Notes: a model not told the origin generated them from the sequence alone. Shown: positions 36,801 through 52,588, numbered from the stretch's first letter. The stretch: 64,000 bases of DNA from an uncultured Thermoplasmata archaeon (GCA_963719945.1 CAVRDX010000003.1:32001-96000), one strand, 5' to 3'. Made by a program: numbers and translations.

Positions 36801-37421
36801 CTACTTGAGCACCACTACGCTGCTAGCCTCGAGGGTCGCAGGAGCGGTTATCTCCAGGTATGTCGGCACACCGTGCTTGGGCATCAACAGGAGCGTCAGC
36901 TGTTCTTGTGGGTCGAGCTCCATTGTTATTCCCGTCGCGGTGGTGAGGTCGATTTGTACCTGGAATACATCTCCGGCGGTCATCATGACTGCAGCTGTTG
37001 CTGGGTCCATGTCTCTGAGCTCAGTTGCGGTGAACTCTGTGGCGGATGCTGCAGCTGCGTATGAGAGCGTGATTTCAGACGCTACTCCTCCGCCGATGGT
37101 CTGCGTAACCTCAATTATCGTGTTCTCGAGGTTGATCCCAGGGCTACCAGCGATCAAGGCTATCTTGATGTAGATCGTGTCGATGGCTGGAGTCGCATCT
37201 GTCGATCCCCATACGGCAAGGACCTTGAATCCACAGGCAACGTCCTGCAGAGCCTCGTCACCAGTCGACTCGGCCTGCTGTTGCAGCTTGTATGCAGTCT
37301 GGACCAAGACACCCGCTGCCACAGCGGCAACGATTATCATGGCAATGAAGATAAGAAGGGTTCCAACACCCATCTCGCCTTCCTCTTCCATTTTTCTCTT
37401 TTTCCACGCTAGTTTGTTCAT
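36801..37421 (-). CDS. arlB: Archaellin A (206 aa; first gene of the arl operon)
   Basis: Class III signal peptide G/EMGVGTLLIFIAMIIVAAVAAGVL; L.AGS..INL; GD; P..G.P motifs; SD GGAGG. Confidence 0.93.
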   Translation of the reverse strand: MNKLAWKKRKMEEEGEMGVGTLLIFIAMIIVAAVAAGVLVQTAYKLQQQAESTGDEALQDVACGFKVLAVWGSTDATPAIDTIYIKIALIAGSPGINLENTIIEVTQTIGGGVASEITLSYAAAASATEFTATELRDMDPATAAVMMTAGDVFQVQIDLTTATGITMELDPQEQLTLLLMPKHGVPTYLEITAPATLEASSVVVLK

Positions 37422-37431
37422 TGTTTCTATT

Positions 37432-37797
37432 CCTCCAACTTCGCATCTCTTCTCGAGTCACGTACCCGAGGGACGTTCGGCACCCTGCCGACGAGGAGAT
37501 CTTCCGAGCCGATCCTAGCTCTCCTGCCTATTGACAGGACATCGAGAGCATCCGCTACCCGATGGTTTGTCCAAAAAGCACGGTTTTTCAACGCCCGCCG
37601 TGAATCTTGTCTAGCACTGGGGCGATTACACAACTCCTGGCGACAGCCAGACCGTTCCATCCTAACTGGTCTTCTCGCCTCACCTCCGATGGCAACCGCC
37701 GCCGTGCCCTGCAGCGGGGAGTGAGAGAGATGCACCCCTCAAGGTTGTGCTTGAGAGGCACTATCCACAGGGCATGTAGACCTCTCTCGAGTCTACT
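37432..37797 (-). ncRNA. Candidate ~350-nt structured leader or sRNA upstream of archaellin A
   Basis: Lies between TATA-like box (37805-37818) and SD; at least 8 hairpins visible by eye; long-range GCATCTCT/AGAGATGC pairing; complementary to other arl leaders. Confidence 0.6.
37755..37782. repeat. 28-bp element, perfect inverted repeat of 39752-39779
   Basis: GAGGCACTATCCACAGGGCATGTAGACC is the reverse complement of GGTCTACATGCCCTGTGGATAGTGCCTC. Confidence 0.95.
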
Positions 37798-37845
37798 ATC
37801 CAGAATATATATCTTAAACATTAGTATACAAATGTCTAGAAAAAT

Positions 37846-37865
37846 TATGAGAAGTGATTCTCATA
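37846..37865. promoter_or_regulatory. Palindromic operator upstream of the archaellin A promoter
   Basis: TATGAGAA-gtga-TTCTCATA (8-bp perfect arms), containing the GTGATTCTCAT box. Confidence 0.6.
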
Positions 37866-37890
37866 GGTGATTTGCGCATTCGTCAAATCA

Positions 37891-39612
37891 TCAGACGAGA
37901 TTCACATATCTGTAAGCCCCAAGATATGGGATTGTACAGTCCTCTATCGTAGGCTGGCCTATGCTCGGAATGAATTTCATCGAGAACGATGATTCGGCGT
38001 GAAGGTTCAGTCCTATCTCGCCGGCGTCGACGAATATTTTCACGAGTCCTCCATCCGAGAGAGAGAATGTGCTTGCGAATTCGCTATCTGGATCCCTAAG
38101 TATCTGGACAGAGAAGCTGTCAGCAGTCGCCCCGGCTGGCCCGAATTCTGCAGCATTGAATGCCAGCGTGACATCCTTCTCCCCGTCAGTGATCTCTATC
38201 ATCAGAGACGTGAACAGGATCGGCATGCTTCCAGGCACTGTCTTGACCTTGATCTCGATCATCTGGATGGTGTTCGATGGTATCACTGGTTGTGCATAGT
38301 TGTCTGCCGCATCCACAGCTACTACGGTATAGTAGTACAGGGTTCCAGACACTCCTGAGTAATCACAGTACTGGGTCGTGTTGCTGCTGACCGATGCGAT
38401 GGGGGTGGAGTTCCTCAACTCCTCGACGCTATCGAGCGCGGACATGCTGGTACTCCTGTAGATTAGGTATTCACCGATGTACGTCTCACTATCGGACGCT
38501 TCGTTCCAGTTCATCTCGACAGATTGTATATATTGCGTAGCACCAAATGCCTGCACTGCGGACGGAGCGATGGAATCCACGACTTCAGCATTGTATGTGA
38601 GCGTTCCCAATGAAACCTGGTTCCCCGCTCGGTCTTCGACTATTACATAATACGTATAGGTCCCCTCATCACTAGGGGCGTCAGAATAGCTAGACGCAGT
38701 GGAATTAAGTGCCGCAATGAGCTCCGCTCCGATCGATATGGAGATGACCCTTCGTCCATCGACCATCTCGCTAGATAGCGACCCAACCGATACGGTGCTC
38801 CTATAGAGCAGCTGCTGGTCGACGCCACTGCCCGCATCGGTGGCTGGAACCCAGAAGAGCATGACAGAATACTCATCAGGTCTCGATGTGCTCGTCATGG
38901 ATCCACCTGCGGGTATGGTCTGATCCTCATCATGACTTGCTGCATCCGTGGATGCAGAACTGTCAATCGGAGTATAGAGGGCACGGTTTCCAGCTGCGTC
39001 CACTCCGACTATTGCATACGCATATGACGTGGAATTATCGTCCCTGGCGGTATAATCCATATACTGTCTATCTGACCCGAAGCCAGTTGTCAACGTTGCC
39101 AATTCATAGGATGGATTGAGTTGATCGAGTGTCAATAATCGATTCCTTGCGATCTGTTCGTTGAACGCGGCAGGATTGGTCGGGTCATATACCGAGGTCC
39201 TGTAGATGATCTCCTCAGCCAACCCAGAGCCATAATCAATGGCGGAGGTCCAGTTCAGAACTATTCGGAGTGGTGCAACTCCGTCGTTTGAAGCAGTTGC
39301 GTTCCATAATATGCCACCAGTCGGCGGTTGATCATCTCTCGATGGCATATACCCGGAAGCGATTGAAGAATCTGCACCGTCAGGGTTCCTGTCGCCTGCG
39401 ACATTGACGACGGTAAGTCCTCCAGAGACCTCTGAAACGGCATCGTCGACAGTTCTCTGTGCCTGTTGCTGCAGCAACGCTGCAGCATAAAGTATCAATG
39501 ACGCTGCGATTGCAGCGACCAGCACCATCGCAATGAAAATGATAAGTGTACCTATACCGACATCGGCTTCTTCATCCGTCTTGATGCTCGTTCTTGCTTT
39601 TTTGAGCCCCAT
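37891..39612 (-). CDS. arlB: Archaellin B, giant (573 aa) with about 3 fibronectin-III-like inserts
   Basis: A/DVGIGTLIIFIAMVLVAAIAA N-terminus; archaellin C-terminal half (PGS.PI, IEITDG, RDPD, IP..G.P); three W..A.D..SG/T...IYR(S/T)...Y.Y.(IV)..VD.A.N repeats in between. Confidence 0.88.
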   Translation of the reverse strand: MGLKKARTSIKTDEEADVGIGTLIIFIAMVLVAAIAASLILYAAALLQQQAQRTVDDAVSEVSGGLTVVNVAGDRNPDGADSSIASGYMPSRDDQPPTGGILWNATASNDGVAPLRIVLNWTSAIDYGSGLAEEIIYRTSVYDPTNPAAFNEQIARNRLLTLDQLNPSYELATLTTGFGSDRQYMDYTARDDNSTSYAYAIVGVDAAGNRALYTPIDSSASTDAASHDEDQTIPAGGSMTSTSRPDEYSVMLFWVPATDAGSGVDQQLLYRSTVSVGSLSSEMVDGRRVISISIGAELIAALNSTASSYSDAPSDEGTYTYYVIVEDRAGNQVSLGTLTYNAEVVDSIAPSAVQAFGATQYIQSVEMNWNEASDSETYIGEYLIYRSTSMSALDSVEELRNSTPIASVSSNTTQYCDYSGVSGTLYYYTVVAVDAADNYAQPVIPSNTIQMIEIKVKTVPGSMPILFTSLMIEITDGEKDVTLAFNAAEFGPAGATADSFSVQILRDPDSEFASTFSLSDGGLVKIFVDAGEIGLNLHAESSFSMKFIPSIGQPTIEDCTIPYLGAYRYVNLV

Positions 39613-39751
39613 CCCAGTCCTCTCCGGTGTGCGAGGGCATGGAACGTAGCGTTGTTGAGCCTAGAGCATCCGCTAACTCATGGCACCATCAGAAATTATC
39701 CCGACTTGTTGAGCCGGTAATATATTACTCGTCAGAAAGACGAGAGTCTAC

Positions 39752-39794
39752 GGTCTACATGCCCTGTGGATAGTGCCTCGAGATGCGTTGGAGG
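39752..39794. repeat. Composite antisense element in the archaellin B leader
   Basis: 39752-39779 is the inverted copy of 37755-37782; 39780-39794 (GAGATGCGTTGGAGG) is the inverted copy of 37432-37449 lacking 3 nt. Confidence 0.9.
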
Positions 39795-39978
39795 CTAGTG
39801 ATTATCATGCGTTTGAAGATTATATAAGACAACAAGCCGTGATTTTCATGCAAGATAATCAGATTATTTGAATCAAAAATATCAATTGTAAGGGGTTTCT
39901 TTGGGATATTCCCAGACGCTGATATGCCCTGTTTGTCAGTCTCTCTCAATTCTCGTTGTTCGGATCAACCATCGCCGG

Positions 39979-40490: not shown

Positions 40491-41135
40491 TCAGGTCAGT
40501 ATCTCATATGTGTTCGACAGGACCGAAGGTGTGGTGATTAGCACATAGGTCGGTATCCCGTGCTTCGGTATCAGGAGTATCGTAGCGTCCTGCTGGGTGA
40601 CGAGGCTCATGTCCGTAGGCAGTTGTTCAGCCAGGTCGATGTGCAACAGCGCAACATCTCCCTGAGTGATTCCCACATCTGCTGCGGTCCATGCAGCGAT
40701 ATTCAAGGGATATGTGTCCCTCAGACTCGCCACATCGAAAGTGCCATCCGTGGATGCGACAGTGTAGTCTGGACATGATAGCGTCTCATCTGCCTCTCCA
40801 TTTGATATCTCGATTATCAATGTGGCCAGGTTGATCACCGGGCTGCCCGCTGTCAGCGCCACCTTCAGGTACACATCAGTGATGACCAATGCACCCGTGC
40901 CATCATCCGCCGTCATTCCATATATCGCCAACACTTTCAGACCCGTTGCTACTTCCTGCAATGCCTGGTCGCCTGTCGCTTCTGCCTGTTGCTGTAGTTC
41001 GTATGCGGTTTGGACTAGGACGCCAGCTGCTACGGCGGCGACTAATATCATCGCTATGAAGATCAACAACGTGCCGACCCCCATCTCCCCTTCCTCACCC
41101 ATACGAATCCTTCTGGGCTTGGGTATCTTTTCCAT
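40491..41135 (-). CDS. arlB: Archaellin C (214 aa)
   Basis: G/EMGVGTLLIFIAMILVAAVAAGVL; LTAGSPVINL; IPKHGIPT; close paralogue of archaellin A. Confidence 0.93.
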   Translation of the reverse strand: MEKIPKPRRIRMGEEGEMGVGTLLIFIAMILVAAVAAGVLVQTAYELQQQAEATGDQALQEVATGLKVLAIYGMTADDGTGALVITDVYLKVALTAGSPVINLATLIIEISNGEADETLSCPDYTVASTDGTFDVASLRDTYPLNIAAWTAADVGITQGDVALLHIDLAEQLPTDMSLVTQQDATILLIPKHGIPTYVLITTPSVLSNTYEILT

Positions 41136-41284
41136 CTCTTTCCCTCCTCTGTGGTCGCGGAGAGGTCAGTCATCCAAAATCCAGACTGCATGAGTTGAGA
41201 ATGTCGTGTGCGGCGTGGAGCGCCCACTCTCAATTCTCAATCATCACCAGAATCATGGTGCCTGGCCTATCCGCGTAGTGTGAT

Positions 41285-41329
41285 TCTCTTTCACTCCCGA
41301 GGTAGGTCTACAATTGCCCTGTGGATAGT
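41285..41329. repeat. Third, imperfect copy of the element in the archaellin C leader
   Basis: AGGTCTACAatTGCCCTGTGGATAGT (41304-41329, 2-nt insertion) and TCTCTTTCACTCCC (41285-41298; 13/14 inverted match to 37717-37730). Confidence 0.85.
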
Positions 41330-41509
41330 CCAAGCGTCTTTTCTCTCGAGTGCGTTAGTGCCGCCTCTGAGAGCTATATCTGATTCTCATGTATGATAAA
41401 AATGGTTGTGTCGTGATTCTCTTTTTAGAAAATGACAAAATCAGTCCGAAAAGAATAGAACGTGAAATGGAGGGGAGTTAAAAGGCCCCCTTAATTTAGG
41501 AAAGGTTAT

Positions 41510-52480: not shown

Positions 52481-52588
52481 TGGTGTCGGGGACGGGAATC
52501 GAACCCGTGACCTCCGGATGTCCTAGGAGCATCTGGTCAGAAGAACTCCCTATGAGTCCGACGCTCTACCAGGCTGAGCCACCCCGAC
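52481..52588 (-). tRNA. tRNA-Met(CAT), elongator type, with 31-nt intron (52520-52550) and encoded CCA
   Basis: GTCGGGGTGGCTCAGCCTGGTAGAGCGTCGGACTCATA[intron]ATCCGGAGGTCACGGGTTCGATTCCCGTCCCCGACACCA; intron at canonical 37/38 with GGGAG/CTCCT helix. Confidence 0.92.

Follow-up and report, generated by a model that had tools for sequence, protein, structure and literature searches.

What is encoded in the 469-nt gap (37422..37890) that runs from the stop codon of arlB to the ATG of arlA in the archaellum cluster of an uncultured Thermoplasmata archaeon? We analysed a 64,000-nt stretch of this genome (GCA_963719945.1; a 1.78-Mb assembly in four contigs, 87% complete), hereafter the window, whose minus strand carries the cluster for the archaellum, the archaeal flagellum. 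The genes follow one another in the order winged-helix regulator, arlC, an ArlD/E-like gene, arlB, arlA, and then ArlC/D/E-, F/G-, H-, I- and J-like genes, with Pfam matches to FlaC/DE, KaiC-like ATPase, T2SSE and T2SSF on the 3' side of arlA. Neighbours of the cluster include two helix-turn-helix (winged-helix) regulator genes and some proteins without a Pfam match. The archaellin genes are:

41135..40491, minus strand: arlC, archaellin
39612..37891, minus strand: arlB, a 573-aa archaellin with Ig-like inserts
36801..37421, minus strand: arlA, a 206-aa archaellin (Pfam Arch_flagellin, E = 8e-27), the first gene before the arlC/D/E-F-G-H-I-J-like genes

The gap consists of an AT-rich, promoter-like part with a GC content of 0.39-0.45, followed by about 367 nt at 0.56-0.58, which is above the GC content of other intergenic DNA in the window. 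Several blocks of the upstream part are conserved:

37811..37863, minus strand: arlA promoter, with blocks conserved in 15 genomes
37863..37855, minus strand: arlA upstream box TGAGAATCA, a conserved block
37833..37825, minus strand: arlA promoter block ATTTGTATA, a conserved block
37818..37811, minus strand: arlA TATA-like sequence TTTAAGAT, a conserved block

The spacer between the TATA box and the GC-rich part varies among the 15 genomes, and in the alignments conservation then sets in abruptly at CGAGAGAGG, 23 nt 3' of TTTAAGAT. Judged by the usual spacing of archaeal promoters, the first invariant base, G 37788, is the likely transcription start of arlA, and the predicted transcript would begin with a long untranslated segment:

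37422..37788, minus strand: arlA 5' leader RNA, about 367 nt, from the predicted +1 at 37788 to the base before the ATG at 37421

A sequence-only reading of this DNA had described a large, densely structured non-coding RNA with no credible ORF, and the comparison with relatives bears out both parts of that description. The gap of this genome contains ORFs of 102 and 77 aa whose products are arginine-rich, of low complexity and without a Pfam match. No reading frame in the leader is conserved even among relatives that are 95% identical, and single-base indels fall inside well-aligned leader blocks. For these reasons we rejected a protein-coding reading, and the alignments show the leader to be non-coding. 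Covariance-model searches with Rfam 15 at gathering thresholds found two tRNAs in the whole window and nothing in the leader; at E<=10 over 37300-38000 they returned two snoRNA models that scored well short of threshold and matched the other strand, and thus no family was reached at either setting. An origin from a mobile element or plasmid was also rejected, as plasmid and phage collections held no match to the leader.

Full-length homologues of the gap occur in three genera at 70-95% identity, and BLAST against relatives also found a partial homologue in one genome of the sister family (G038). Of the 46 species genomes in the family, 17 contain an arlA homologue, and these 17 are precisely the ones with the leader. 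When a covariance model built on the 5' domain was searched across the order, 18 of 49 genomes gave a match, a single one each and always before arlA; 134 genomes of other Thermoplasmata orders gave none. Metagenome contigs yielded six further loci (L185, L186 and L188-L191). A 17-mer scan of metagenome contigs returned mostly chance matches; six were true leaders, and all but one of these are >=98.9% identical to species already sampled. A scan of genome contigs with a 14-mer core gave chance matches only, for example to the CxxC coding sequence of a Methanoperedens ferredoxin. Across these comparisons the leader proves to be conserved wherever archaellum genes occur; it lies directly 5' of arlA, at the head of the main archaellin operon, and is found only in archaellated genomes. 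We regard the arlA leader as an RNA family without known relative that is specific to one uncultured Thermoplasmata order. Lineages independent of one another are few (about 5-6 clades), and several of the evolutionary events counted below may share descent.

We modelled the fold of the leader with RNAalifold on 15 sequences and then curated the model on 21 leaders, arriving at 60 pairs in nine helices; the central ~115 nt, variable in length and sequence, are largely left out of this model. Across the 21 leaders, 95.1% of 1255 cells at the proposed pairs are paired. Double (compensatory) changes occur in 28 of the 60 pairs, a number that none of 500 shuffles reached, and the covariation score is 0.283 compared to 0.164 in shuffles (0/500). 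When the partners were slid by 1-3 columns as a control, pairing fell to 39-52% and covariation to 0.05-0.09. The folding energy of the leader in this genome is only modestly better than that of shuffles (z = -2.2 in sense, against -1.9 in antisense), but all 13 lineages have a negative z, ranging from -1.7 to -7.2 with a median near -3.6. The structured parts are:

37732..37761, minus strand: hairpin P2, GUGCCUCUCAAG/CUUGAGGGGUGC, 12 bp, six pairs changed on both sides, 96% paired
37565..37679, minus strand: variable central region with lineage-specific hairpins, which aligns poorly
37650..37637, minus strand: central hairpin CUGGC/GCCAG, elsewhere CAGG/CCUG or GCGG/CCGC
37452..37564, minus strand: 3' domain of five consecutive hairpins, each with 3-5 compensated pairs and 89-98% of cells paired
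37564..37540, minus strand: hairpin P5, CATCG../..CGATG, with compensatory changes
37539..37522, minus strand: hairpin P6, CCTGTC/GGCAGG, with compensatory changes
37515..37497, minus strand: hairpin P7', GGATC/GATCT, with compensatory changes
37491..37477, minus strand: hairpin P8, TCGGCA/TGCCGA, with compensatory changes
37470..37452, minus strand: hairpin P9, CTCGGGT/ACTCGAG, with compensatory changes

Supported hairpins are P2, which is retained with a different sequence in G038 of the sister family, P5, P6, P7', P8, P9 and the central CUGG/CCAG, and the alignment shows at least seven leader hairpins to be kept through compensatory changes. The central region forms 2-4 hairpins per lineage. 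Among the stems listed from the single sequence, CCTCTCAAG/CTTGAGGGG (P2), CCTGTC/GGCAGG, TCGGCA/TGCCGA, CTCGGGT/ACTCGAG and CTGGC/GCCAG all show compensatory changes in the 21 homologues; P5 and P7' were absent from that list and are new here. GCTCTC/GAGAGC is able to pair but competes with P5, P6 and P7'. The other listed stems are local: GTAGAC/GTCTAC is restricted to this genome and its close kin, with a 5' arm upstream of the predicted start, TGCCCTG/CAGGGCA to genus g1, and GACC.GTT/AACGGTC and CACGG/CCGTG are confined to a species or genus and not conserved among the 21 homologues. A long-range helix proposed to close next to the Shine-Dalgarno (SD) sequence keeps a 5-6 bp core, CAUCUC/GAGAUG, whose sole variation is a wobble-compatible A-to-G change, but its remainder is lost and no double changes occur in it. 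In addition, the invariant GAGC at 37521..37518 is complementary to GCUC in the loop of P7', which makes a candidate pseudoknot. Both the position of the leader, for which promoter and +1 are predicted only, and its covariation are those of the generic class of structured cis-regulatory leaders, and we consider it very probable that the arlA leader is a functional structured leader.

On what, then, would such a leader act? In the 3' domain, loops and junctions are more conserved than base pairing would require, which is what a purely cis-acting sensor leader would show, be it a riboswitch, a thermometer or a protein-binding RNA. With regard to a riboswitch, conserved loops are present; no Rfam aptamer or other known riboswitch matches the leader, and the gene context suggests no ligand. 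As for RNA thermometers of the ROSE or fourU type, we found no consistent SD hairpin with a U-rich or UCCU stretch, and the leader is about ten times larger. The parts of the leader that never change are the 5'-terminal GAGAGAG with the 28-nt element behind it, a pyrimidine tract, the internal GGAGGUGA, and GAGAUGC..GUUGGAGG at the ribosome-binding site:

37788..37782, minus strand: invariant GAGAGAG at the leader 5' end, preceding the 28-nt element
37755..37782, minus strand: 5' docking element GGUCUACAUGCCCUGUGGAUAGUGCCUC, leader nt 7-34, the exact reverse complement of 39752-39779
37716..37732, minus strand: pyrimidine tract CAUCUCUCUCACUCCCC, nearly invariant
37680..37687, minus strand: internal SD-like octamer GGAGGUGA, GGAGGUG invariant in 21 leaders and the final A in >=90%
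37432..37449, minus strand: 3' docking region made of GAGAUGC (37449..37443), a spacer and GUUGGAGG, complementary to the first ~16 nt of the arlB leader
37436..37432, minus strand: arlA SD GGAGG, within GUUGGAGG

The pyrimidine tract has several candidate partners within the leader, namely the 5' GAGAGAG, the internal GGAGGUGA, the 3' GAGAUG and the SD, all of them invariant. The corresponding helices (GAGAGAG/CUCUCUC, CUCC/SD, CAUCUC/GAGAUG and tract/GGAGGUGA) are made of invariant bases, with no compensatory changes for or against them. The two conformations suggested for the tract from the single sequence likewise involve invariant bases throughout. On our reading of the alignment, GGAGGUGA is followed by neither a conserved start codon nor a small ORF. 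Partition functions of single sequences give the SD a pairing probability of 0.20-0.92 with a partner that differs between homologues, and because these folds disagree we do not take self-sequestration of the SD as established; the homologues do not consistently place the SD in a helix with the pyrimidine tract of the leader itself.

A partner of the 5' element lies in the leader of the neighbouring archaellin gene. In this genome the element and the arlB leader form a 28/28 inverted match, with the two repeats 1969 bp apart. Genome-wide, sites of this kind number three, all at archaellin leaders, and looser matches occur at control level. The arlB side comprises:

39827..39820, minus strand: conserved arlB TATA box TTATATAA, with the conserved block starting ~24 nt later
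39796..39780, minus strand: predicted 5' end of the arlB leader, AGCCUCCAAC-GCAUCUC, antisense to the arlA SD region
39779..39752, minus strand: arlB anti-element directly after GCAUCUC, antisense to the arlA 5' element

The conserved block of the arlB leader reads AGCCUCCAAC-GCAUCUC-GAGGCAC...GUAGACC. As it starts ~24 nt after TTATATAA, the predicted arlB RNA would begin with the sequence antisense to the 3' end of the arlA leader. This antisense (to GAGAUGC, a 3-8-nt spacer and GUUGGAGG) runs without a gap into the anti-element. In arlA and arlB alike, the conserved block starts at the +1 predicted from a conserved TATA box and the spacer in between varies.

Across 22 loci the 28-nt element is either invariant or altered in concert with its partner. 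Where the full two-arm partner is present (19 loci), all 28 positions of this first arm pair without a mismatch. Differences on one side alone all produce G·U or U·G pairs; six positions are affected, and at least six events can be counted (in the g4 clade, G017, G024 and G019/G016, plus two in L191). A random change in a Watson-Crick pair gives a wobble in 1/6 of cases, and by our own estimate, which carries no phylogenetic correction, six out of six would arise by chance with a probability of ~1e-3 even allowing for transition bias. Concerted double changes are seen in G016, where the arlC copy has changed too, in G038 (two positions) and in L185 (two positions), and an indel in g3 is likewise a concerted change in both partners. 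One pair can be followed stepwise, from U-A to U·G in G019 and to C-G in L189/G013. Extended complementarity at the 5' end and at the SD, maintained by compensatory or wobble-only changes, is the pattern of an antisense RNA-RNA pair.

Concerted change of the copies by itself would also suit a shared DNA-binding protein. If the 28-bp element were a DNA operator for a common transcription factor, such as one of the two winged-helix regulators that adjoin the cluster, the RNA could still be a sensor acting purely in cis. In favour of this, TCTACA-N5-TGTGGA within the element forms an imperfect dyad, and at each promoter the element coincides with the predicted start or is close to it. The two divergent metagenome loci L185 and L186 are informative here: their arlB leader keeps 14-20 nt of the element and no SD arm, and the arlA leader nevertheless retains GAGAUGC and GUGGAGGC. 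Persistence of these 3' motifs despite an eroded arlB partner is what a sensor leader would predict, and it indicates that the motifs also act within the leader, probably, to judge from the complementarity, with the leader's own pyrimidine tract. On the other hand, an asymmetric 28-bp site far exceeds the length of a dimer operator, conservation sets in with the predicted +1, after a variable promoter spacer, and recognition of DNA does not predict that every one-sided change keeps an RNA pair through G·U. The second, co-varying arm between the arlB 5' end and the arlA SD has no account as an operator either. The wobble pattern and the SD arm lead us to argue for the RNA level over a shared DNA-binding protein, and we consider the combination of sensor leader and operator unlikely.

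Perfect 28-bp inverted repeats that bracket a promoter and a gene at a distance of 1969 bp could alternatively be the sites of a phase-variation switch, which would flip the 2-kb segment containing arlB and the arlA promoter, the supposed leader being merely DNA downstream of one recombination site. Gene order and orientation are the same in 23 of 23 loci, and no recombinase domain is found among the neighbouring genes, which makes DNA inversion unlikely. About nine loci also have one-sided differences between the repeats that frequent recombination would homogenise, both genes would lose their promoters on inversion, and the SD-arm complementarity, the third copy and the covarying hairpins would be left unexplained. 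Taking this together, we give inversion almost no credence.

The second arm, between the 5' end of the arlB leader and the arlA SD region, is ~15 bp long. Its duplex has an energy of -21 to -25 kcal/mol compared to a shuffle mean of about -11, and 0-5 of 2000 shuffles are as good. Its two sides change together: GUUGGAGG occurs with CCUCCAAC and GUGGAGGC with GCCUCCAC, and a third combination, GUGCACGGAG and CUCCGUGCAC, is that of the sister family. Pairing is cognate-specific in G038, where the arlB end reaches -22.0 with its own arlA leader and -9 to -16 with others. Cofolding of the full arlA and arlB leaders predicts the two arms wherever a lineage possesses them, and the net gain amounts to -27 to -42 kcal/mol. 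The arlA pyrimidine tract mimics part of the arlB sequence, as GCAUCUC and CUCC are present in both, and may thereby offer an intramolecular alternative to it.

The same complementarity and covariation would be expected if the two arms met inside one molecule. Read-through from the arlB or arlC promoter would then give a polycistronic RNA with a 2-kb long-range stem and arlB in its loop; the stem would silence arlA as a signal for processing or insulation, comparable to the stems that flank archaeal rRNAs as processing signals. In every locus the genes share one orientation and lie close together, and a T5 run that follows arlB in g1 is absent in g4, making read-through plausible in some lineages. 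Against this arrangement, a conserved promoter of arlA's own immediately precedes the element, the helix is perfect and shows no bulge-helix-bulge motif on inspection, and the arlC and arlB copies would compete on one transcript. We therefore rate such a processing or insulation signal as a distinctly unlikely explanation.

Further copies of the element occur within the arlB leader and in front of arlC:

39634..39642, minus strand: sense copy of the element core, CCAUGCCCU, in the arlB leader, 28-36 nt before the arlB AUG
41305..41329, minus strand: arlC leader partner, an anti-element with a small insertion in this genome, the third copy, in arlB orientation

Every arlB leader that has the full two-arm partner contains CCAUGCCCU, and its only changes (G026 and G034/L190) are wobble-compatible; it is a candidate internal partner of the arlB anti-element. 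In most genomes the complementarity of arlC extends over the extreme 5' end of the arlA leader, CGAGAGAG, and cofolding of the arlC and arlA leaders gives a net gain of -14 to -29 kcal/mol. The regulatory hub suspected from the single sequence thus takes shape as predicted complementarity of the arlA leader with both the arlB and the arlC leaders. Two further contacts with arlC were not adopted. A purine tract of arlC, GGGAGUGAGAGAGA, is complementary to the arlA pyrimidine tract, but where the tract changes (G013) it does so without compensation; part of the GGGAGUGAGAGAGA stretch instead lengthens the duplex with the arlA 5' end. Masking of the arlC SD and AUG by the arlA tract was left aside because the context of the arlC SD and AUG is not conserved between genera.

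Could the conserved object be a small RNA instead of an mRNA leader? The 5' domain alone is conserved across both families, and in g1 and g4 a T4-T5 run in mid-leader supplies the 3' side of a small A/U hairpin. An independent sRNA, or one derived from the leader by termination at the U-run 37578..37574, might act in trans on the other leaders and not in translational control of arlA. The U-run is, however, absent in g3 (G013, G016, G019), and within the family conservation is just as strong in the 3' domain and in the motifs near the SD, which extend right up to the start codon. An sRNA in place of translational control of arlA seems very unlikely to us. Production of such an RNA would also be compatible with the leader-leader pairing proposed here.

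Based on these results, we propose that the arlA leader probably represents a new family of leader RNAs, which would act through leader-leader pairing on the translation of arlA, the stability of its mRNA, or both. The first ~45 nt of the arlB leader would constitute one continuous antisense splint, whose 5' half would pair with GAGAUGC..GUUGGAGG and cover the arlA SD and whose 3' half would pair with the 28-nt element at the 5' end of the arlA leader, while the 310-nt hairpin body between the two paired arms would be looped out. A splint over the SD would block ribosome access to arlA for as long as arlB RNA is present; we propose SD occlusion as the effect on arlA only tentatively. Pairing with arlA would also free the arlB anti-element from its own putative partner CCAUGCCCU near the arlB SD, and this displacement could have a reciprocal effect on arlB. 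The arlC leader is predicted to pair with the same arlA 5' end. All of this pairing could take place either between separate mRNAs or inside a read-through arlB-arlA transcript. Whether the outcome would be repression, activation or stabilisation is at present a guess. In its most elaborate form, the proposal amounts to a toggle made of RNA only, in which the arlB splint hides the arlA SD, the arlA 5' end displaces the internal helix beside the arlB SD, and arlC competes for that 5' end, so as to choose the archaellin and with it the type of filament; we put this forward as a somewhat speculative possibility.

Known systems supply the principles and not the arrangement. Riboswitch expression platforms and RNA thermometers are 5'-UTR switches that sequester the SD. 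Like them, the arlA leader is structured, precedes the start codon, and has pyrimidine tracts complementary to the SD with alternative partners. It differs from them in its ~367 nt, its at least seven hairpins and the lack of an aptamer match; moreover, the best-supported partner of the arlA SD lies on another leader, and masking by its own tract is inconsistent. Regulation between mRNAs is found in Listeria, where the hly 5'UTR pairs with prsA2 mRNA. Rli51 is a trans-acting leader (PMC11394854). In both these cases and ours, an untranslated region pairs with an mRNA of the same functional module and would couple expression. Unlike the bacterial examples, the present case concerns an archaeon and the 5' leaders of paralogous filament genes; it involves three leaders, connects the two ends of the target leader through arms of 28 bp and ~15 bp, and is built here from sequence comparison.

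The hag leader of Bacillus subtilis places flagellin under the control of CsrA-FliW, and resembles the arlA leader in belonging to a major filament subunit, in having its control point at the SD, and in tying synthesis to the state of assembly. The proposed effector for arlA is an RNA and not a protein; CsrA-type control through GGA loop motifs was rejected, since these motifs are not conserved and no CsrA homologue was found in this genome (87% complete). Bacterial flagellar phase variation uses invertible promoters of the hin/hix type, in which, as here, inverted repeats flank a segment with a filament gene and its promoter; unlike those, the present repeats occur in no inverted state in 23 loci, have no recombinase nearby, and diverge by wobble-compatible changes.

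Known regulation of the archaellum is transcriptional, through EarA and the Arn network, and to our knowledge few structured leader elements of the present kind are known in Archaea. The arlA locus may share the transcriptional layer, as conserved boxes upstream of the TATA box, TGAGAATCA and TTTGTATA, suggest a transcription factor. In Pyrococcus furiosus, the activator EarA acts at the arl promoter and intergenic terminators contribute to archaellum regulation (PMC10665913); the arlB0 leader there is 30 nt (PMC10665913), in contrast to the long, structured arlA leader described here. The literature that we searched contained no long structured archaellin leader and no archaeal mRNA-mRNA or leader-leader pairing. 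Because the closest systems are SD masking, mRNA-mRNA pairing and CsrA-controlled leaders, we class the arlA leader as a new RNA family that follows known principles in an unusual arrangement.

With its alignment, structure and taxonomic range, the leader is a defined new RNA family for curation of the Rfam type. It also offers a case in which post-transcriptional control of archaeal motility can be tested. If the toggle is real, we know of no earlier description of a regulatory circuit between mRNAs in Archaea, and pairing among archaellin leaders may offer an answer to how organisms with multiple archaellins choose among the paralogues.

In addition to arlA, arlB and arlC, one species (G001) has a fourth archaellin gene, which lies on a separate contig (G001:C140:1507-2401, locus L210). 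This gene is preceded by a copy of the anti-element, the complement of the arlA leader element that lies in the arlB and arlC leaders, with 93% identity over 30 nt, so the element accompanies archaellin paralogues.

At a locus of the sister family (genome G038, L036:3260-4700), arlA is duplicated in tandem and two extra genes, encoding a KaiC-like ATPase and a protein of 153 aa that has no Pfam match in a related contig, separate arlB from the arlA leader. Despite the extra genes and the duplication, the locus retains the 5' domain of the leader as well as both pairing arms, through which the first ~45 nt of the arlB leader (the splint) are complementary to the two ends of the arlA leader. Two genomes of genus g3 have arlA homologues that are disrupted by in-frame stops or frameshifts and whose leaders are intact; these disruptions could reflect assembly errors or recent pseudogene formation:

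G019:C1:293883-294492, disrupted arlA homologue (loci pair L028, L035)
G016:C21:58919-59479, disrupted arlA homologue (loci pair L028, L035)

The other two leaders also contain conserved sequence. Beyond the splint, the arlB leader (window 39613-39751) has conserved blocks AUUCUGAUGGUG and GUCCCAUGCCCU, and a copy of AGCGGAUGCUCU that occurs there only in the species group of the window's genome; AGCGGAUGCUCU is also found at 37555-37545 within the arlA leader and ahead of the HTH gene (~42046). arlC likewise has a conserved leader of ~240 nt (window 41136-41375), with GCUCUCAG at the predicted start, the anti-element, CUCGGGAGUGAG, GCGGAUAGGCCAG and AUUCUG as its conserved blocks, and looks like a second structured leader.

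All three archaellin promoters share a TGAGAATCA / TGAAAATCA / TGATAATCA box across genera (window and homologous loci L022-L036), found in the window at:

37855-37873, box region
39797-39806, box region
39838-39848, box region
41380-41390, box region

Upstream of the arlA TATA box it occurs as a direct pair (AATCA-N7-TGAGAATCA), and at arlB and arlC copies lie upstream of the TATA box or between it and the start. The box is probably a transcription factor operator, and the factor acting there is perhaps one of two adjacent HTH proteins. Elsewhere in the window, a 105-nt tRNA gene (52484-52588) presumably carries an intron; tRNA introns are typical of archaea.

Within the family the archaellum cluster occurs patchily: 17 of 46 species genomes carry it, and these are spread across all four genera. 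Besides the genome studied here, 5 of the 11 other species of its genus (g1) have the cluster, and the remaining three genera have it in 1/19, 3/3 and 7/12. This distribution suggests that motility has been repeatedly lost, or gained, within the family.
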